32,000 bases of DNA from Candidatus Nitrosotenuis aquarius (lineage in GTDB: Archaea > Thermoproteota > Nitrososphaeria > Nitrososphaerales > Nitrosopumilaceae): positions 460,328-492,327 of the forward strand of contig NZ_CP024808.1 in NCBI RefSeq assembly GCF_002787055.1, written 5' to 3'. A program made the translations under genes and the position numbers. Below, piece by piece: positions 2,258 through 25,431 of the stretch. The notes under the pieces were generated by a model that searched no databases, was not told where the DNA came from, and saw only the letters and a list, made by a program, of their open reading frames with translations. Position 1 is the first letter of the stretch. Each line of letters starts with the position of its first letter.

Positions 2258-3652
2258 ATGGCAGCAGGTATTGACGACATTGCCATTTACATTCCGCGCT
2301 TGTTTGTAGATTCGACCGACTTTGCCCAAGCACGAGGCGTAGACCCAGTCAAGCTAAAGCAGGGACTGGGCATATCACGCATGGCAATAGTAGATTCCAA
2401 CCAAGACCCAGCGTGCCTGGCTGCAAACGCATGCCTAAAGATAATGCAGCGCAACAAGATATCCCCAGACGATATTGGTAGGCTATATGTAGCGACAGAA
2501 TCCTCATTGGACGAATCAAAGGCCCTAAACTCTTACGTCATTGGTATGCTAGAGCAGGTATATGGAGACGGCTCCTTTGAGCATTGTGGTGGGATAGAGT
2601 GCAAATTTGCATGTGTTTCAGGATCATATGCCCTGTATGATAACGCCAACTGGATTAGGGCAGGAGAGGCGGAAGGAAAACACGCAATTGTTGTAGTATC
2701 AGACATTGCAAAATACGACATGGGTTCTTCTGGTGAATACACACAGGGAGCAGGCGCCATTGCGATGTTACTTAACGATAATCCAAGACTGTTACAATTT
2801 GATTCCAAGGTCACATCAACATCAATTAAAAACGAGTACGACTTTTACAGGCCGTTTGGCAAAGAAACCCCAATTGTTCACGGACAATACTCTAATTTGC
2901 TGTACCTAATCCAGGTCAAAAAAGCATTTGAATCATACAAGAAAAAGGCAATAGAAACAGGAATCATCATGCTAAAGGAAGGAGAGACAATCTTGGACCA
3001 CATTGATTATCTTTGCATGCACTTGCCATATTCTAACATGGGCAAAAAAGCACTATCATACCTGCTAAGACGTGAATGGCGAAGCCTCCCAAGGTGGAAA
3101 AGAATAGTAGAACAGACAGGAATGGAAGAGCCTGTGCCAAAAGATCCTCGTGGCACAATTGAATCAATACTTGCAGACGAAGAATACATGGGCAAAGACC
3201 ACGAGTTTAACAAATTATTTACCAGAACCAAAGAATATCAGGCATTTTACGAGGACAAGCTTGCCAGCTCATTAATTGCATCATCGATGATAGGCAACCT
3301 ATACACCGCATCACTATATCTAGGATTTAGAAGCTGCCTTGAATTTGAATTCCAAAAAGGAGTCGACTTGGAAGGGAAGAGATTCGGATTTGGCTCATAT
3401 GGTAGCGGAAGCAGTGCAATGGTGTTCTCAGGCGTAGTTCAGCCATCATACAAGGAAATCGTCAAGAACATGAACTTGGAAGCAGAAATAGGCGAGCGAG
3501 TCAAGCTATCGCTAAAAGACTATGAGGAAATACATGAAAACAAACGCGCCCCAACACAAAGCATGCTAAGCGGTAAAAATGAATTTGTCCTAGTAAGCGT
3601 TGAGAAATCTCCTGAGAGTAGGGGAGAGCGCAAGTACGTATACTGCCAGTAA
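2258..3652 (+). CDS. Hydroxymethylglutaryl-CoA synthase (long, bacterial/eukaryote-like form)
   Basis: 464 aa. The thiolase-fold HMGS signatures are present: LYVATESSLDESKA (catalytic Glu region), ECKFACVSGSYAL (catalytic Cys), CMHLPYSNMGKKA (His) and GSYGSGS. Confidence 0.9.
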   Translation: MAAGIDDIAIYIPRLFVDSTDFAQARGVDPVKLKQGLGISRMAIVDSNQDPACLAANACLKIMQRNKISPDDIGRLYVATESSLDESKALNSYVIGMLEQVYGDGSFEHCGGIECKFACVSGSYALYDNANWIRAGEAEGKHAIVVVSDIAKYDMGSSGEYTQGAGAIAMLLNDNPRLLQFDSKVTSTSIKNEYDFYRPFGKETPIVHGQYSNLLYLIQVKKAFESYKKKAIETGIIMLKEGETILDHIDYLCMHLPYSNMGKKALSYLLRREWRSLPRWKRIVEQTGMEEPVPKDPRGTIESILADEEYMGKDHEFNKLFTRTKEYQAFYEDKLASSLIASSMIGNLYTASLYLGFRSCLEFEFQKGVDLEGKRFGFGSYGSGSSAMVFSGVVQPSYKEIVKNMNLEAEIGERVKLSLKDYEEIHENKRAPTQSMLSGKNEFVLVSVEKSPESRGERKYVYCQ

Positions 3653-4212: not shown

Positions 4213-4882
4213 ACAACACAGAGTCTTTTTGCAAGATTTGTGATATTGTCATGATGTTACCATTTTGTATGTTGGGGATTTTACAAATGACATCGATGCC
4301 ACTCAGCGACACCAGATCCTCTTCTAGTTCTTGCATGACATATCCTTCAGTATCAGTCTGGTTAATTATCAGCCCCAAAACGTTTATTCCATATTTTTTG
4401 CATAGATTCAAGGCAAGTAACGTGTGGTTAACAGAGCCCATCTTGGTTCCAGTCACCATCAAAACATCAAGATTCAGATCTTTTATCAGATCCGCAACAA
4501 AGTAATCCCTCAAAATAGGAACAAGTATTCCACCAATTCCCTCAACTAGAACAACATCGTGGTTTGCTTGTAATTTCTCATAGCTCGATAAAACCAGGTC
4601 AACGTCTATTGTTTTGCCCAGTTTTTTTGCGGCTCGATACGGCGAAGTCGGAATTGGGAAAAAATACGGATTAATCAGTGATTCAGGATCATTTACGCCG
4701 GAATGGTGTACAAGTAATTCGACATCTTCAGATTTGAATCCGTTTTTTTGTGGAATTCCTGTTGCAAAAGGTTTCATTACGCCTACATCGACACCAGAAG
4801 ACTTTAGAGTACTTGTAAGGGCGCACGTAAAGACGGTTTTGCCTATGCCAGTGTCAGCACCAGTAATGAAAATCGACTTCAT
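4202..4882 (-). CDS. bioD: Dethiobiotin synthetase
   Basis: MKSIFITGADTGIGKTVFTCAL contains the P-loop GxxGxGKT, and EGIGGILVP is also present. I chose the internal ATG at 4882 because the longer ORF (to 5047) would overlap the divergent bioA start. Confidence 0.85.
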   Translation of the reverse strand: MKSIFITGADTGIGKTVFTCALTSTLKSSGVDVGVMKPFATGIPQKNGFKSEDVELLVHHSGVNDPESLINPYFFPIPTSPYRAAKKLGKTIDVDLVLSSYEKLQANHDVVLVEGIGGILVPILRDYFVADLIKDLNLDVLMVTGTKMGSVNHTLLALNLCKKYGINVLGLIINQTDTEGYVMQELEEDLVSLSGIDVICKIPNIQNGNIMTISQILQKDSVLSKL

Positions 4883-10418: not shown

Positions 10419-10420
10419 AC

Positions 10421-10469
10421 TTGTAACCATACCACCATGTAACCAGAGTTACACCATGTAAGGTTACAA
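10421..10469. promoter_or_regulatory. Nested palindrome immediately upstream of the cdvB-like promoter
   Basis: The outer 8-bp inverted repeat is TTGTAACC (10421-10428) / GGTTACAA (10462-10469). The inner 6-bp repeat is TGTAAC (10438-10443) / GTTACA (10448-10453). CCATGTAA occurs twice. A TTTAAAAG TATA-like box follows at 10475-10482. Confidence 0.45.
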
Positions 10470-10503
10470 ATTTCTTTAAAAGTAATTTTTCAAGCATTTT
10501 GAC

Positions 10504-11154
10504 ATGGGGTCATTAAGCGACAAATGGAATGATTTTGGAAGATCAGAAAGCCTCACACAAAAAATTGTCGATAAAGTAAAGCCAGACGTCCCACTCAAAA
10601 ACAAAATCGACGTAGCCCAGAAAAACCTCCAACTACAGATTGTCAAACTGGACGGAATCTCTCAAAAAATAAAACAAAAACACGATTACATTTTCAGCAA
10701 AATAGTTTCAGCACAAAAATCAAACAACAACTTGCACGCAAAGGCATATGCAACCGAATTATTGGAAATTAGAAAAATGCACAACATGGTAAATGGTGCA
10801 AAACTCGCACTAGAACAAATTCAGCTCAGACTTAACACAGTGTCAGAGCTTGGAGACATCGTGGTGACATTGAGCCCATGCATGTCTGTAATCAAGGGGC
10901 TAGGCAGCTCACTTTCTGGAATAATGCCAGAGGCAACATCATCGATGCAAAACCTCTCGCAAATACTAGGCGATGTGCTAACTGGATCTTCAATGAATGC
11001 TGCAGATGCCACGGTGTCCACATATAGTCCAAATTCAGACACGCTTGCAATACTAGAGGAAGCCCAAGCAGTAATTGAAGGCCAAGCAAGGGCAAGCATT
11101 CCAGAACCACCAACAAGCATAGCTAGTCAAGCAAGAAGAGAATCAATCATTTAG
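10504..11154 (+). CDS. cdvB: ESCRT-III / Snf7-family protein (CdvB paralogue)
   Basis: 216 aa with a predicted long helical hairpin pattern typical of Snf7/CdvB (KNLQLQIVKLDGISQKIKQK...ELLEIRKMHNMVNGAKLALEQIQLRLNTV). The C-terminal tail has a proline-rich IPEPP motif. No winged-helix extension is present. Confidence 0.75.
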   Translation: MGSLSDKWNDFGRSESLTQKIVDKVKPDVPLKNKIDVAQKNLQLQIVKLDGISQKIKQKHDYIFSKIVSAQKSNNNLHAKAYATELLEIRKMHNMVNGAKLALEQIQLRLNTVSELGDIVVTLSPCMSVIKGLGSSLSGIMPEATSSMQNLSQILGDVLTGSSMNAADATVSTYSPNSDTLAILEEAQAVIEGQARASIPEPPTSIASQARRESII

Positions 11155-11482
11155 ATTTCTTTTTGCTTTTTTCAATTAGAATTTTCTTTATCCTGGAAAT
11201 TGTAGGATAGCTGTATCCGCGGCGTCTGTAATTTGAGATCATCATTTTCCAGTTTTTTAGACGCCATTGCGCCTGCTCGTTTGTTATGGAGTGGATTTCT
11301 TTTTGTATGATGCTTTTTCTGCCCACCTTGAGAACCCCCGCGTCTTTTGCAGACCACCGGTTCTTGGCAAACTTGAGCCCTAGTAGAATTTCTTCAATAG
11401 GCATTTCTCTAAAACAATCTTCAATTATTTTGAGCTGAGCATCAGATGGTGTCTTTTGCACCTCAAGTTTTATCTCATCCAC
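11147..11482 (-). CDS. Hypothetical protein with possible C-terminal helix-turn-helix and a basic tail
   Basis: 111-aa ORF. RRRGYSYPTISRIKKIL resembles an HTH recognition segment, and the protein ends with KSKKKSK. I recognise no family. Confidence 0.5.
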   Translation of the reverse strand: MDEIKLEVQKTPSDAQLKIIEDCFREMPIEEILLGLKFAKNRWSAKDAGVLKVGRKSIIQKEIHSITNEQAQWRLKNWKMMISNYRRRGYSYPTISRIKKILIEKSKKKSK

Positions 11483-12436: not shown

Positions 12437-12682
12437 ATGAATAAGATTATGTCTGCCGCAATCTTTGCATCAGTTGTCCTAATGTTCGGCACAGTCGCAT
12501 CAGTACTAGAAATGGTACCAGATGCAGAGGCAATAAAGGCAAGAGGCACGTATCTGAAGGATACTGCTTCGAGTCAGAGACATACAGCATCCAAAGTCTG
12601 TGGCGACCAATTATGTGGAGGACTGATTGACTCGTCAACAGGATTGAAAAAGGGACAAATCAGCAGAGGCTTTTCAAGATAA
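12437..12682 (+). CDS. Small secreted/anchored protein, VCGDxLC family member 1
   Basis: 81 aa. It has an N-terminal hydrophobic signal segment (SAAIFASVVLMFGTVASV) followed by QRHTASKVCGDQLCGG. A TATA-like TTTAATAA box is centred about 27 nt upstream of the ATG. Confidence 0.55.
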   Translation: MNKIMSAAIFASVVLMFGTVASVLEMVPDAEAIKARGTYLKDTASSQRHTASKVCGDQLCGGLIDSSTGLKKGQISRGFSR

Positions 12683-12728: not shown

Positions 12729-13001
12729 TTATTGCCCTTTAATTTTCAGTAATTCTTGGTGTGTGTATGTATCGTATGGAGATTTGAATGTCTTTGACTT
12801 GAAGTTCCATTTGAAATATGGTTGACCTTCGCATAATTGATCACCACAGACACTGTTTCCCATCCATTTTGAGATCTTGTGTCTCTGCAGACCTTTACCT
12901 GAGGACTTTTTTGCTTCTGCAAATTGTCCTGCCTCGAGTGCATTAATTACTGTCATGGACAATAATATGCTGACTCCAATTAATGCTGCTAATTTGAGCA
13001 T
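12729..13001 (-). CDS. Small secreted/anchored protein, VCGDxLC family member 2
   Basis: From ATG 13001 the product begins MLKLAALIGVSILLSMTVINALEA, followed by ...QRHKISKWMGNSVCGDQLCEG. The longer ORF (start 13040) would contain the ATTAATTAAT TATA-like box that aligns with the promoter of the paralogue at 13314. Confidence 0.6.
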   Translation of the reverse strand: MLKLAALIGVSILLSMTVINALEAGQFAEAKKSSGKGLQRHKISKWMGNSVCGDQLCEGQPYFKWNFKSKTFKSPYDTYTHQELLKIKGQ

Positions 13002-13049
13002 GTTTTTGCTGAACTTTATTGCATTAATTAATCCATCCATTTATCGATA

Positions 13050-13071
13050 TTTCAAAACTCGAATTTAGAAA
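13050..13071. repeat. Near-palindromic box copy 1 (TTTCAAAACTCGAATTTAGAAA)
   Basis: Identical to copy 3. 18 of 22 positions are self-complementary. It lies 18 nt after the stop of the 13090-13314 gene and 17 nt upstream of the TATA-like box of the 12729-13001 gene. Confidence 0.8.
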
Positions 13072-13089
13072 TAAAGAATTTTAATGGTG

Positions 13090-13314
13090 TTAGTTATGTG
13101 GAGCGCTCTTGCCTATTCGCTTGACGGTTTTAAGGTGCGTGCCCTCTTTACAGAGCTCATCACCACAGACCTTCTTTGACCATTTGCTGAATTTGTGCTT
13201 TGGAGAGTCTTTTGCCGGCTTTGCGTCTGCTGGTTGATCGGCTGAGAAGCCCATCAATAACGCGCCAGAAAGCAATACTGCCATTGCTACAAGACCCATT
13301 GTTTTAGCAGCCAT
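13090..13314 (-). CDS. Small secreted/anchored protein, VCGDxLC family member 3
   Basis: 74 aa with the signal segment GLVAMAVLLSGALLMGFSA, followed by a Lys-rich PKHKFSKWSKKVCGDELCKEG. An AATTAATTA box is centred about 28 nt upstream of the ATG. Confidence 0.65.
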   Translation of the reverse strand: MAAKTMGLVAMAVLLSGALLMGFSADQPADAKPAKDSPKHKFSKWSKKVCGDELCKEGTHLKTVKRIGKSAPHN

Positions 13315-13360
13315 GTTAAACGTACCAATTGCTGTCTAATTAATTGATCTTTTTGTAATG

Positions 13361-13382
13361 TTTCAAAACTCGAATTTAGCAA
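13361..13382. repeat. Near-palindromic box copy 2 (TTTCAAAACTCGAATTTAGCAA)
   Basis: One mismatch to copies 1 and 3. It lies 6 nt after the NUDIX stop and 14 nt upstream of the TATA-like box of the 13090-13314 gene. Confidence 0.8.
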
Positions 13383-13388
13383 TATTTG

Positions 13389-13838
13389 TCATTTGTGCCT
13401 AGAATTCAACGCGTCACGAATCATCTTTTTGTGATGTGGCAAGGTCTTGCCAGGCAGCCTTGTAAAAAACCCATAGTCATCGCTTTGGTAATCTGTCTTG
13501 ATTTTTCCCCTTGATGGCACCACTATGAATCCATGCGAAATATCATGACGGAATTTGTTGAGGCTCTCATAGACTCCAACAAATCTTTTGATTTTTACAT
13601 TGAGGTTTAGCTCTTCTTTTGCGGATCTTTTGACTGCGCCTTGCAGAGTTTCATCCTTGTGGACCATGCTTCCAGGCAAATGCCAGTATCCCTTGTATGG
13701 ATTTCTGGTTCTTCTAGTCAGCAGGACAGACTTGCCATCAAGTATTATCAGGTCAACACATGAAAAAGCAAAATACTTTCTAAAGTGTTCATAGTCTTTT
13801 TGCGGTGCTTTTTTGACCAAGTTTTGGCAGACCCCCAC
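13389..13838 (-). CDS. NUDIX hydrolase
   Basis: The Nudix box is GSMVHKDETLQGAVKRSAKEELNL (Gx5Ex7REx2EExG-like). The GTG start at 13838 is uncertain. Confidence 0.85.
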   Translation of the reverse strand: MGVCQNLVKKAPQKDYEHFRKYFAFSCVDLIILDGKSVLLTRRTRNPYKGYWHLPGSMVHKDETLQGAVKRSAKEELNLNVKIKRFVGVYESLNKFRHDISHGFIVVPSRGKIKTDYQSDDYGFFTRLPGKTLPHHKKMIRDALNSRHK

Positions 13839-14406
13839 CTTTTGGAGTAAAACTGGGCTAAATTAACCAATTCTGTATGCCTAAAAATCCAAGATTTGGT
13901 AGAAATTTTGCCAATATTAGAAAACATCAAATTTTGCAAAACCATTCGTAAATGCTAAACCCCCCGGTATGAAGGCCTGGCTTACTCATGTAGTGATTTT
14001 TTCAAAAATGCTCAAAAACCATGGGGGTTTAACGTTTGTGCGTAACTAATACAGGCAAGCACCAAAACACCCCCATTGCCCAGCTAAGGACCTTGCAATT
14101 ATTTTTGATACGAGTAAAAGCTAAACCCCCGGTTTTTGGCAATTTTTTACCATTTTTTGGGTCAGTTTTTGATACCAAGTTTTGGTCTTTTTTCATCATT
14201 TTCTAAATTGAGTTTACTGGTGGTTTTTTGGAAAAATGTGCCCTCATTTCCCCATATTCTAAAATGGAAAATAATGGTAAATTTTTTAGAAAAAATAGAT
14301 AGAACTAGATGGGTTTTGTATCACACCACAATGCAAAACCAGGTAGTTTTGCGCGTATTTTTGTATTGTCGTAATTTAACACTGGTAGTACGGGGTTTAA
14401 ACTAGA
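13839..14406. other. 568-bp ORF-poor, T-tract-rich spacer carrying four G5/C5 repeat units in two inverted pairs
   Basis: The units are GCTAAACCCCCCGGT (13954-13968), AAAAACCATGGGGGTTTAACG (14014-14034), GCTAAACCCCCGGTTTTT (14120-14137) and CGGGGTTTAAAC (14391-14402). Several T5-T6 runs occur on the plus strand. Only low-quality ORFs are present. Confidence 0.6.
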
Positions 14407-14655
14407 CTAGTTTGTAAGGGTGACCTTTTCGCGGTTTTCTATGATTTCTACTTCTATTGTTTCCAACGGATCTTCTACCTGATTTCGCCTAATTGATAAT
14501 AATTTGGGTTTCTCAAAGTCCACCGTACAATCAGGACATGCATATACCAAGACCCTATGTTCGTTTGGCGCCTTTGGATTTGATAATCTGGGGTAATAGG
14601 TCAGTCTGCCACCGCAATCAATACAATAACGGTTGGCCCTTCTAGTTCTGGCCAT
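14407..14655 (-). CDS. Hypothetical zinc-ribbon protein
   Basis: 82 aa with CIDCGG...CPDC (two CxxC pairs). A strong Shine-Dalgarno GGAGGT sits 6 nt upstream of the ATG. Confidence 0.6.
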   Translation of the reverse strand: MARTRRANRYCIDCGGRLTYYPRLSNPKAPNEHRVLVYACPDCTVDFEKPKLLSIRRNQVEDPLETIEVEIIENREKVTLTN

Positions 14656-14746
14656 TGTAAACCTCCTGCATTATTGGATATCTGCGATCAGATATTAGAT
14701 CGGTTCGGTCTAAATGTATAAACCAGAATGGTTGCAACGATCAATG

Positions 14747-14768
14747 TTTCAAAACTCGAATTTAGAAA
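14747..14768. repeat. Near-palindromic box copy 3 (TTTCAAAACTCGAATTTAGAAA)
   Basis: Identical to copy 1. It lies 24 nt upstream (minus-strand sense) of the TTTATACATTTA TATA-like box of the zinc-ribbon gene. Confidence 0.8.
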
Positions 14769-14828
14769 TATTACACACAACACACATGCAAACCGGACTT
14801 GATGATTTGCCATCAGCAAAAACAAATA

Positions 14829-14850
14829 TTTCAGAATTCGAATTTAGAAA
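14829..14850. repeat. Near-palindromic box copy 4 (TTTCAGAATTCGAATTTAGAAA)
   Basis: Two mismatches to copy 1, with a perfect 10-bp central palindrome AATTCGAATT. It lies 5 nt beyond the 3' CCA end of tRNA-Asn. Confidence 0.75.
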
Positions 14851-14855
14851 GATTA

Positions 14856-14932
14856 TGGCGCCGCCCGTCAGACTTGAACTGACGACCCCCTGATTAACAG
14901 TCAGGCGCTCTACCACGCTGAGCTAGGGCGGC
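14856..14932 (-). tRNA. tRNA-Asn (anticodon GTT), CCA encoded
   Basis: The reverse strand reads GCCGCCCTAGCTCAGCGTGGTAGAGCGCCTGACTGTTAATCAGGGGGTCGTCAGTTCAAGTCTGACGGGCGGCGCCA. The acceptor stem is GCCGCCC/GGGCGGC, the D arm GCTC/GAGC, the anticodon stem CCTGA/TCAGG with loop CTGTTAA, and the T arm GTCAG/CTGAC with loop TTCAAGT. It is much more GC-rich than its surroundings. Confidence 0.95.
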
Positions 14933-24503: not shown

Positions 24504-24920
24504 GTGCGATTTGAGATTCCATTTTTCGGACATGAAAACGTGCGGGCGCTACACACAAGGACAATAGAGATCACAACAGAACACGATCTGACACTTCAAG
24601 GAGACTGCATAGTCGGGGTTGGTGCAGATCATGGTTGTGTGAGCATACCAGAAAATCTAAAAGAAAAACTCCGCCGATCTGAATCAAAGATAATAATTAC
24701 AATTCAAGTTGATGATGAAGAGTTTGTCATCGAGGGCAAAGGTCATGAAGATCTCAGACTAGAAAACCCCCACGACATTGTAATTAGGAAAAGTAATTTT
24801 CTTTGTCCGCGAACCTTGGCAATTGGATGCGACAAGGCATCTGATGATATTCCAAGAAAAATGATAAAAAAATTACAAAACCCTAAAACAAAAGGATTGT
24901 TTGTAATCGAAGTTACTTGA
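24504..24920 (+). CDS. DUF371-like conserved archaeal protein
   Basis: 138 aa containing FFGHENVRALHTRTIEITTEHDLTLQGDCIVGVGAD, which matches my recollection of the DUF371 pattern. GTG start. Confidence 0.6.
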   Translation: MRFEIPFFGHENVRALHTRTIEITTEHDLTLQGDCIVGVGADHGCVSIPENLKEKLRRSESKIIITIQVDDEEFVIEGKGHEDLRLENPHDIVIRKSNFLCPRTLAIGCDKASDDIPRKMIKKLQNPKTKGLFVIEVT

Positions 24921-25431
24921 TCTTTTTTTGTCCTGTAAGGTCCTTGTTTTCAAGAACATTTGCCATAGCCCGATTTACGATTTCGGTGAGGACAAATTCA
25001 TTGTAAGCAGATTCTGACTTTTTTTGTAGTGCCGGCTTTTTTGCAATACCTTCTAGAATTTTCTCAATTTTTGCGGATGTTATTTTTATCATCGAGGAGT
25101 ATTTCGAATCAAAGTCTTTTGATGATGAATTTGAGAACAGTTTGATTGAGGTACCATAGAATTTTGCAATGGCCCCCCTCACTTCTTCAATTTTTACTAT
25201 CTCAATTAGGCCTGCTTCTTTGAGAATGTCCAAATGATGTCGGATTGTGGTGATGGCTTTGTTGTGTCCATTTTTTTGGAGTTCCTTTGCGATTTGTTCC
25301 GCTGTTAGTTGTTTGTGATACAGCATTTCCACTATCTTTACTCTGGCAGGATCTTCCAGGGCCTTTGCGTGTTCAACTGAGATGCTTACCACTCGGTTGA
25401 CCTTGATTGTTTTTTCTAGTAATGTTGACAT
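24913..25431 (-). CDS. ArsR-family winged-helix transcriptional regulator
   Basis: The wHTH region is ALEDPARVKIVEMLYHKQLTAEQIAKELQ...TIRHHLDILKEAGLIE, followed by a C-terminal helical extension. Confidence 0.7.
   Translation of the reverse strand: MSTLLEKTIKVNRVVSISVEHAKALEDPARVKIVEMLYHKQLTAEQIAKELQKNGHNKAITTIRHHLDILKEAGLIEIVKIEEVRGAIAKFYGTSIKLFSNSSSKDFDSKYSSMIKITSAKIEKILEGIAKKPALQKKSESAYNEFVLTEIVNRAMANVLENKDLTGQKKIK

Follow-up and report, generated by a model that had tools for sequence, protein, structure and literature searches.

The window analysed in this work, a stretch of 32,000 nucleotides (32 kb) from Candidatus Nitrosotenuis aquarius (contig NZ_CP024808.1, positions 460,328 to 492,327), holds a ribosomal-protein cluster (15 kb onwards), a biotin operon, HMG-CoA synthase and proteasome genes and, among a tRNA-Asn gene and genes for a Zn-ribbon protein, a NUDIX hydrolase and small secreted proteins with a CGDxLC motif, four copies of a near-palindromic intergenic sequence, hereafter the box (Table 1). 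Near-identical relatives of the Zn-ribbon protein and of a 111-aa orphan also encoded in the window (orphan-111) carry the name Nitrosotenuis, including those of the complete genome CP011097.2. We describe the box as a class-wide element of ammonia-oxidising archaea (AOA) that is shared with a family of small virus-like circles, and consider that it is, with a probability of about one half, the operator of a conserved dimeric DNA-binding protein controlling a small local set of genes.

Four copies of the box in the window

The core TTTCAAAACTCGAATTTAGAAA has exactly four matches in the window at up to three mismatches, and none was obtained in 100 dinucleotide-preserving shuffles of it. Over the whole 32 kb, a relaxed palindrome pattern returned no fifth copy and a position weight matrix built from 131 archaeal copies returned no weaker one, and a repeat finder grouped the four boxes as a single four-copy family reaching approximately 40 nt. 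An earlier interpretation made by a model from the letters alone (the sequence-only reading) had described four copies within 1.8 kb with no other full copy in 32 kb, and had counted 18 of 22 core positions as self-complementary around a TCGA centre; both statements hold, the former by the pattern, palindrome and weight-matrix scans. The distances that it gave to gene ends and TATA-like boxes were all correct on re-measurement, and its view of the box as a non-random near-palindromic intergenic element agrees with four copies found against none expected and with conservation in relatives. AT-rich TATA-like elements at 13336-13346, 13023-13033 and 14709-14722 lie 14, 17 and 24 nt, respectively, downstream of boxes. 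The tRNA-adjacent copy, which on the minus strand is followed by a T-run (TTTGTTTTTG), occupies a position that is orthologous across Nitrosopumilales.

Conservation across ammonia-oxidising archaea

A scan of one genome per prokaryotic species with the pattern TTTCNNAAYTCGARTTNNGAAA gave at least 120 loci, and approximately 95 of those listed belong to the Nitrososphaerota, with the genera Nitrosopumilus, Nitrosarchaeum, Nitrosopelagicus, Nitrosotalea, Nitrosotenuis, Nitrososphaera, Nitrosocosmicus and Nitrosocaldus. The box is thereby found in all three orders (Nitrosopumilales, Nitrososphaerales and Nitrosocaldales), in at least approximately 140 copies, and its AOA-wide consensus, ATRTTTCTAAAYTCGARTTTAGAAAYAT, reads as a perfect palindrome of 28 bp. 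Conservation extends to the flanks and to positions that the pattern did not fix: 95% of copies have T at position -1 and 79% have A at -2, position 5 is T/A and position 6 is A. The centre follows lineage preferences (CTCGAG in Nitrososphaera, TTCGAA in Nitrosopumilus). Chance or a microsatellite was rejected as an explanation, and the approximately 25 non-archaeal genome matches, which are TTCGAAAT-type tandem repeats or isolated chance matches, were excluded.

As an unbiased host sample, ten further Nitrosotenuis contigs were retrieved through the identical Zn-ribbon protein and not through the motif. All ten have the same four-box layout as the window, and their forty boxes vary only at positions 5, 6, 9, 14 and 16-18, with TTTC, AA, TCGA and GAAA invariant. 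Among the matches listed, approximately 139 of 140 copies are intergenic once spurious box-containing open reading frames (ORFs) are removed, gene calls in the related loci being our own and based on ORFs. Copies scattered over the genome, coding regions included, or an element missing from related genomes would have spoken against the sequence-only reading; run per species, the genome-wide search returned a strongly conserved, class-wide AOA element that is intergenic and recurs in fixed contexts beside the same genes.

Host gene contexts and promoter geometry

In Nitrosopumilales, a tRNA-Asn gene is followed by one to three boxes and then by the Zn-ribbon gene, which starts 91 nt downstream of the proximal box in 24 loci, a spacing kept in more than 15 loci of this order. 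The box stands between the TM75 membrane-protein gene and a DUF2299 gene in Nitrosopumilaceae (67-68 nt from the start), and between a Trx gene and a CdvB paralog in Nitrosopumilaceae and Nitrosotalea, while the order NUDIX, box, CGDxLC, box, CGDxLC is that of Nitrosotenuis, as in the window. Nitrososphaerales have the box between bioF and orphan-111 (24-39 nt from the orphan's start), between the divergent starts of bioB (66 nt) and either orphan-111 or a recombinase, and between an RHH gene and bioA. In Nitrosocaldus (L030, L117) and a deep-branching metagenome-assembled genome (MAG; L018), it precedes a radical-SAM gene or lies between tRNA-Asn and a TM92 gene. Besides the genes with fixed spacings, those recurrently found downstream are bioA, CGDxLC, radical-SAM, luciferase-like (LLM) oxidoreductase and CdvB paralog genes. 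At least two further arrangements are convergent: a PPOX-like gene and a Lys/Ala-rich gene, the latter with its own T6 terminator before the box, face each other across it, and a C80 gene is separated by it from an intron-containing tRNA-Asn gene.

TATA-like elements lie 4-33 nt beyond the box at most host copies. At the orphan-111 orthologs, the radical-SAM gene and the LLM oxidoreductase gene the TATA element abuts the box, so that the outer arm occupies the position of the TFB-recognition element (BRE). All host contexts belong to one ancestral neighbourhood, which extends from the L6/tRNA-Asn end of the ribosomal cluster to the bio/CdvB/thiolase genes; in CP011097.2 the box region is at 0.56 of the sequence.

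Some loci show the box in particular states. In the complete Nitrosopumilus chromosome L122, boxes at 4530, 4601 and 4672 form perfect 71-nt tandem units of box plus spacer before the Zn-ribbon gene, and in Nitrosotenuis the box-plus-gene units recur every 311-356 nt. In the Nitrosopelagicus loci L050, L087, L089 and L114 only a decayed remnant of the box is left before the Zn-ribbon gene. The Nitrososphaerales-type tRNA-Asn with an intron (e.g., L121, 3428-3540, minus strand; also L102 and L054) escaped the tRNA finder and was recognised by eye beside the L6 gene. The Lys/Ala-rich gene of Nitrosopumilaceae (L011, ~2470-2900; L015, ~2660-3100; L075, L059 and L027) lies downstream of the PPOX-like gene, with its 3' end convergent on the box, and encodes a highly repetitive, basic Lys/Ala/Arg/Pro-rich protein (…AAPKRKAAKRRAAP…) that resembles histone-H1-like or nucleoid proteins. 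The gene order leading to this box in Nitrosopumilaceae is ArsR-like, PPOX-like, box; the window has an ArsR/HTH_20-type regulator of 172 aa (24913-25431, minus strand), likened to that ArsR-like gene, two genes upstream of the box, by family type only, and lying approximately 10 kb from the boxes with no PPOX-like partner in the window.

A DNA element rather than an RNA

Folded singly, the four copies have energies of -0.4 to -4.1 kcal/mol and z-scores near 0, no better than those of shuffled sequences. Complementarity between the arms is often lacking at positions 5/18, 6/17 and 9/14, each arm drifting independently of the other; in the forty-box Nitrosotenuis set, orthologous copies break the putative pairs. 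What is conserved is the sequence and not a structure, the self-complementary ‘loop’ TCGA included, and an Rfam scan of the window matched the tRNA only and no family at the box. Furthermore, most boxes are upstream of TATA boxes and are therefore absent from the downstream mRNA. The box is thus read as DNA, and it is extremely improbable that it acts as an RNA, be it a hairpin terminator or a stability element in a 3' or 5' untranslated region. Any transcript of a palindromic DNA could in principle fold, symmetric combinations are in excess at positions 9/14 (96 observed against 74 expected) and also at 5/18, and two adjacent boxes can pair (-29 kcal/mol, z = -3.9). However, the excess of symmetry is explained by the lineage preference for CTCGAG or TTCGAA, and pairing of boxes 3 and 4 is trivial for two copies of one palindrome, with an unconserved spacer between them. 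The weak RNA hairpin or terminator hairpin offered as an option by the sequence-only reading is contradicted by folding energies, z-scores and non-pairing orthologous copies alike.

That reading had also suggested a small transcript in the 60-nt segment between boxes 4 and 3. When 30 orthologous regions were aligned, column identity was 42% in this spacer, against 76% in the box and 77% in the promoter and leader of the Zn-ribbon gene. In relatives the spacer measures 38-60 nt, box starts are 60-82 nt apart, and one, two or three boxes are present. A conserved small RNA in the spacer was accordingly rejected.

The box in small circular virus-like genomes

An IMG/VR scan found the same box in approximately 50 contigs of 4.1-4.6 kb (38-42% G+C, several of them terminally redundant), and protein-based searches added approximately 100 more from marine metagenomes, in which this uncharacterised family is abundant (L133-L148, L150-L157, L159-L164, L167-L185 and L186-L330; e.g., L143, 1-4305, with the box at 67-88). 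About 100 of the circles carry exactly one box each, at a variable position, and in 54 viral boxes fetched by protein homology nearly all core variation falls on positions 9 and 14, positions 5 and 17 accounting for one exception each. In 90 genomes (type A) the box is at the centre of a quasi-symmetric divergent promoter region, with starts 31 nt to each side and a TATA-like element abutting each arm, whereas 48 genomes (type B) have a different palindrome, ATTCTCTATTCTTAGAATAGAGAAT, at the same spot. Ten others (type AB) keep the B palindrome at the promoter and have the box in the convergent gap between the two other gene clusters. Genomes of types A and B can be 92% identical elsewhere and differ by a 25-28-bp palindrome swapped at the same place, which is the behaviour of an exchangeable operator.

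The circles share 11 conserved orphan core genes, including those for a basic 70-aa protein, Zn-ribbons, glycine-rich membrane proteins and a 250-aa protein with an HxH motif; Pfam and PHROG revealed no Rep or integrase, and no similarity to GenBank phages or PLSDB plasmids was found. For circles with no known relatives the shared box is in itself evidence on the host, and it suggests that AOA are their hosts. No viral core protein co-varies with the operator type, all of them, the RHH-like V11 included, being identical in types A and B; a Cys-rich protein, V12 (57-64 aa), is enriched in type A (61/90, against 3/48 in type B and 0/10 in type AB), which is a lead and not a proof. Searches by tblastn and profiles gave no homology that would derive the host genes flanked by boxes from these small viruses. 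Likewise, none of the 160 listed loci holds an integrated provirus flanked by boxes; all viral contigs are of 5.5 kb or less, so that no integrated form was seen.

Candidate binding proteins

Candidate regulators are encoded beside the boxes, which we count in favour of an operator. Orphan-111 is present in both major orders and, in 11 of 19 loci, begins 24-39 nt past a box, these box-preceded orthologs being from Nitrososphaerales and from one deep-branching MAG labelled Nitrosopumilales (L018). In Nitrosopumilaceae the box precedes the CdvB paralog, the convergent partner of orphan-111, instead of the orphan itself. The Zn-ribbon protein is a candidate on similar grounds, and a distant homolog of it in a Nitrososphaerales MAG likewise follows a box. 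For both proteins, searches of Pfam and NCBIfam gave no matches and PDB sequence searches were uninformative. The sequence-only reading had named the orphan at 11147-11482 as a conceivable cognate binder, a proposal that finds support in the comparative context but none in the predicted fold (see Discussion). Both proteins are therefore candidate binders by genomic context, and neither can be called the binder.

A serine recombinase beside the box in Nitrososphaerales

In approximately 20 Nitrososphaerales loci, a 197-aa Pin-like serine recombinase (Resolvase and HTH_7 domains), 65-99% identical across genera, is encoded between bioA, with which it is convergent, and a box 190-640 nt away (e.g., L040, 1798-2478; L024, 4995-5588). 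The layout is recombinase, box, bioB-bioF, box, that is, a gene of the resolvase family beside a segment flanked by two palindromic sites, and between L040 (2667-4895) and L024 (2376-4607) this segment is flipped while both flanks keep their orientation, the boxes marking the breakpoints. Both orientations were not seen within one population, the segment facing the same way in 8/8 contigs of the L024 clade, a small sample. No Pin-like recombinase was found in the window or in the Nitrosopumilales loci examined, and a representative search for its relatives in marine AOA gave only short, context-free contigs with no boxes. Among the ten Nitrosotenuis strains there is no deletion or inversion between boxes, the single regional indel not being bounded by them. 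The box does conform to the architecture of tyrosine-recombinase sites, since it can be written as ATRTTTCTAAA / YTCGAR / TTTAGAAAYAT, two 11-bp arms around a 6-bp centre.

Neighbouring genes and other elements of the window

Table 1. Box copies and neighbouring features of the window
Feature	Position	Strand	Remarks
Box copy 1	13050..13071 (28-bp site ~13047-13074)	none	0 mismatches; 18 nt past the stop of the 74-aa CGDxLC gene (13090); TATA-like element of the following CGDxLC gene 17 nt downstream
Box copy 2	13361..13382	none	1 mismatch, GCAA arm; 6 nt past the NUDIX stop (13389); 74-aa CGDxLC gene starting 46 nt away; 14 nt upstream of a TATA-like CAATTAATTAG element
Box copy 3	14747..14768	none	0 mismatches; promoter-proximal to the Zn-ribbon gene, 91 nt from its start codon
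Box copy 4	14829..14850	none	2 mismatches; 5 nt past the tRNA-Asn 3' end (14856)
tRNA-Asn (GTT)	14856..14932	-	Conserved upstream neighbour of the box cluster
Spacer between boxes 4 and 3, 60 nt	14769..14828	-	Not conserved between genera
Promoter and 5' leader of the Zn-ribbon gene	14656..14746	-	Highly conserved; TATA-like GTTTATACATTTAG at 14709-14722
Zn-ribbon protein, 82 aa (CxxC...CPDC)	14407..14655	-	Most constant gene downstream of boxes
NUDIX hydrolase gene	13389..13838	-	Stop codon 6 nt from box 2
Small secreted CGDxLC protein, 74 aa	13090..13314	-	Downstream of box 2
Small secreted CGDxLC protein	12729..13040	-	Downstream of box 1
Orphan protein, 111 aa (orphan-111)	11147..11482	-	No box upstream in the window
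CdvB (ESCRT-III) paralog	10504..11154	+	Convergent partner of the 111-aa orphan; no preceding box in the window

The leader of the Zn-ribbon gene carries, besides its TATA-like element, the motif TTAGAC-N6-GATCTAATA and a strong Shine-Dalgarno sequence (GCAGGAGGT); in full, the motif reads GGTTTAYTCTATTAGAC-N6-GATCTAATA-N3-GATCGCA, and its conservation is about that of the box. The inverted TTAGA...TCTAA pair surrounds the likely transcription start, which makes a second layer of control likely.

The small secreted proteins are three paralogues (12437-12682 on the plus strand, 12729-13040 and 13090-13314 on the minus strand) each carrying a signal peptide plus the conserved motif VCGDxLC(E/G)G, and domain-profile scans assigned them to no family; of the three, only the two minus-strand copies have a box. 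The gene at 12729..13040 probably begins in fact with the ATG of position 13001 (MLKLAAL...), like its ortholog in L022.

Between the NUDIX and Zn-ribbon genes lies a 570-nt gene-free gap (13839-14406) in which GCTAAACCCCC occurs twice in direct orientation (~13954 and 14120) and GGGGGTTTAAC once inverted (14023), alongside runs rich in T. Some strains with an identical Zn-ribbon protein have a gene for a membrane protein of 152-181 aa at this place and others are without it, like the window, and two Logan contigs terminate within the gap, which is probably a remnant of gene loss or a variable spot. A role of its repeats resembling that of origin recognition boxes (ORB) is unsupported. The box copies themselves were also considered as ORB elements of a replication origin and rejected, there being no orc1/cdc6 gene in the 32 kb, the copies being separated by genes and published work lending no support; the origin of N. 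maritimus has been reported as single and is recovered by the prediction tool Ori-Finder 2.

TGTAACC / GGTTACA repeats (TTGTAACCATACCACCATGTAACCAGAGTTACACCATGTAAGGTTACAA) are clustered at 10420-10472, before the CdvB paralog, whose counterparts in loci of Nitrosopumilaceae, Nitrosotalea and Nitrososphaera have similar GTAACC...GGTTAC arrays ahead of them. The cluster is a second, distinct conserved cis-element and possibly the site of a cell-division regulator.

Discussion

The interpretation of the box as an operator is favoured by its promoter-proximal host positions, by the geometry in which it abuts TATA elements, by the arrays before one gene and by the replacement of one palindrome by another at the viral promoter. 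The sequence-only reading had thought of a site for a dimeric protein ahead of promoters, and the dyad symmetry and the placement of the copies back it in this. It had not described the AOA-wide range of the box, its copies in convergent and divergent gaps, its confinement to one neighbourhood, its presence in the small circles or the inversion breakpoints beside the recombinase in Nitrososphaera. We infer from these observations that a protein binds the box, and what is said on its identity, on the direction of regulation and on the signal should be taken in the same conditional sense. A two-fold symmetric, sequence-specific DNA-binding protein, conserved in all AOA, would recognise the 28-bp dyad site as double-stranded DNA. 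In the window it would bind upstream of three promoters, two of which precede the paralogous secreted CGDxLC genes, and the Zn-ribbon gene would have one proximal and one distal binding site. By analogy with archaeal regulators, the effect would depend on the position of the site relative to BRE/TATA: sites 14-33 nt upstream of TATA may modulate the recruitment of TBP/TFB, most likely by activation or co-operative control, whereas those that abut TATA, with the outer arm on the BRE, would occlude TFB and repress. This presumed repressive geometry is seen at the orphan-111 orthologs, at the radical-SAM and LLM oxidoreductase genes and at both divergent viral promoters. Since the genome is compact, the bound protein would sit directly behind the preceding gene and could also block read-through.

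Several observations weigh against an operator. At least two host site families are in convergent gaps, where there is no promoter to control, and so is the box of type AB circles. Among the matches listed, each of the 15 records longer than 0.25 Mb has its strict matches in one 8-kb stretch, and such confinement to a single neighbourhood is unusual for a regulon, though normal for a local regulator. The location is kept but the flanking genes differ between orders, the distance from box to TATA is variable over the range given above, and a core so nearly invariant throughout a class is a trait more usual in recombinase or partition sites than in an ordinary operator. As for the candidate binders, the predicted model of orphan-111 is all-alpha (predicted local distance difference test score, pLDDT, 71), with no PDB fold or sequence match and no DNA-binding fold recognised, and that of the Zn-ribbon protein is unusable (pLDDT 47).

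The box could also serve mainly as a protein road-block or insulator, stopping read-through from the tRNA-Asn, NUDIX and CGDxLC genes and convergent collisions and having no part in the regulation of initiation. Copies are typically found 2-20 nt past a stop codon or tRNA 3' end (5 nt for bioF, 12 nt for the PPOX-like gene, 3 nt for the TM75 gene, 13-19 nt for Trx and 6-11 nt for NUDIX), a T-run follows the tRNA-adjacent copy, and the convergent-gap copies of hosts and AB-type viruses could be explained in the same way. We nevertheless hold this role to be quite unlikely, given that five host site families and the 90 type-A viral genomes have the box between divergent starts with no gene end close by, and that a T6 terminator belonging to the Lys/Ala-rich convergent gene itself stands after the stop codon, ahead of the box. 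A site that has to precede the next promoter of a compact genome will, moreover, fall close to stop codons in any case. The main rival reading, possible if doubtful, also draws on the convergent copies. Here the box would be where a site-specific recombinase acts, as its core site, or would belong with related chromosome-maintenance sites such as dif/cer/pdif or parS, built of 11-bp arms around a 6-bp centre (YTCGAR) or as 13+2+13. On the host chromosome a single region would be dedicated to it, in which small gene cassettes separate the copies, and episomal viruses would carry one box to exploit the multimer resolution, integration or segregation of the host. The 28-bp, 11-6-11 architecture, in which variation is concentrated at the edge of the central hexamer, speaks for such a site, as does the indifference of the copies to tandem, divergent or convergent settings within a single neighbourhood whose intervening genes are lineage-specific and mostly small orphans.

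The proximity of the Pin-like recombinase to the box in approximately 20 Nitrososphaerales loci, the exact box-to-box inversion of bioB-bioF between L040 and L024, and the single box at a variable position on 4.3-kb circles that have no recognisable integrase or Rep gene point in the same direction, and Thaumarchaea have been reported to lack xerA, with no dif site known for them (Cortez et al., PMC2958812). Nevertheless, no recombinase accompanies the boxes in Nitrosopumilales or in the window, the four-box layout is unchanged in ten Nitrosotenuis strains, the eight contigs of one Nitrososphaera clade show no orientation polymorphism, and a single inversion between inverted repeats is possible without a dedicated enzyme. 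The centre is often fully symmetric, which gives no directionality. The 160 listed loci include no integrated circles, viral genes and host box-flanked genes have no protein homology, and the viral box substitutes for another palindrome exactly at a promoter. The convergent-gap copies, the single neighbourhood, the near-invariant 11-6-11 core, the box-to-box inversion and the single movable copy on the circles nonetheless keep a recombinase or maintenance site a serious competitor. In its fullest form, with the box as the site of an unrecognised AOA chromosome-maintenance system (segregation, or site-specific recombination for dimer resolution or of the cassette ‘dif-module’ type) that replaces XerA/dif, is served in Nitrososphaerales by a domesticated Pin-like recombinase and is parasitised by the 4.3-kb viruses, we consider it unlikely.

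Ammonia-oxidising archaea drive global nitrification and, to our knowledge, almost nothing is known of their gene regulation and genetic tools are missing. As a kind of element the box is almost certainly a conserved palindromic protein-binding site, and what makes it worth following up is the sharing between host and virus and the possible role in recombination. It is near-invariant from the thermophilic Nitrosocaldus to the marine Nitrosopumilus, and the 30-mer AATATTTCTAAATTCGAATTTAGAAATATT offers a concrete bait with which a regulatory or chromosome-maintenance protein common to the lineage, among the first for AOA, could be found. Its presence in viruses suggests that the circles read or exploit a host factor; were the box a recombination site, it would address the replacement of Xer/dif in Thaumarchaeota. 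The box and its promoter contexts could also serve future genetic systems for AOA. In a full-text search of the literature, neither the motif string nor motifs of AOA promoters, regulons or biotin regulators gave anything relevant, and within the searchable text, to which logos shown only in figures and papers behind subscription do not belong, the box is therefore treated as undescribed.

Comparison with known systems

Among archaeal operators, the TGM motif of Thermococcales, bound by TrmBL1/Tgr, and the SurR sites are palindromic operators of dual-function regulators. The box shares with them a dyad site of 20-30 bp beside BRE/TATA, an effect expected to depend on position and a small conserved gene set; on the other hand, its sequence is unrelated and not linked to any cognate regulator family, its host copies keep to one neighbourhood, some of them in convergent gaps, its core is near-invariant over a class and it is shared with viruses. 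With the Xer/dif system, described in archaea as XerA/dif (PMC2958812), and with plasmid cer and Acinetobacter pdif sites, it has in common a highly conserved, intergenic 28-bp inverted repeat divisible into 11-bp arms and a 6-bp centre, its presence on small replicons with no recombinase of their own, and the bracketing of cassettes, one of them inverted between species. It differs from these sites in having several copies per chromosome region and an often symmetric centre, and in that no Xer-type enzyme is linked to it, no integration or excision products were seen and no recombination was found among ten strains.

Small serine recombinases (Hin, Gin and the Tn3/gamma-delta resolvase) act at the crossover sites hix, gix and res site I. 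These are, like the box, imperfect palindromes of 26-28 bp with a central dinucleotide, and in Nitrososphaerales a Pin-like gene lies by a two-site segment found in both orientations. However, the box is AOA-wide but that recombinase was seen in loci of Nitrososphaerales alone, the two orientations belong to different species, and the half-site sequence is dissimilar to those of hix and gix; unlike the Hin/Gin systems, the invertible bioB-bioF segment has its own promoter and thus makes no obvious on/off switch. Finally, LexA boxes on the promoters of temperate phages and CTX-phi are operators of host regulators carried by phages. The viral box differs from them in being found also in a terminator-type gap, and about one third of the viral family uses another palindrome. 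In both cases, however, an identical cis-element is found in intergenic DNA of the host and in the central promoter of a small mobile genome, and this identity suggests that the box reads out a host factor.

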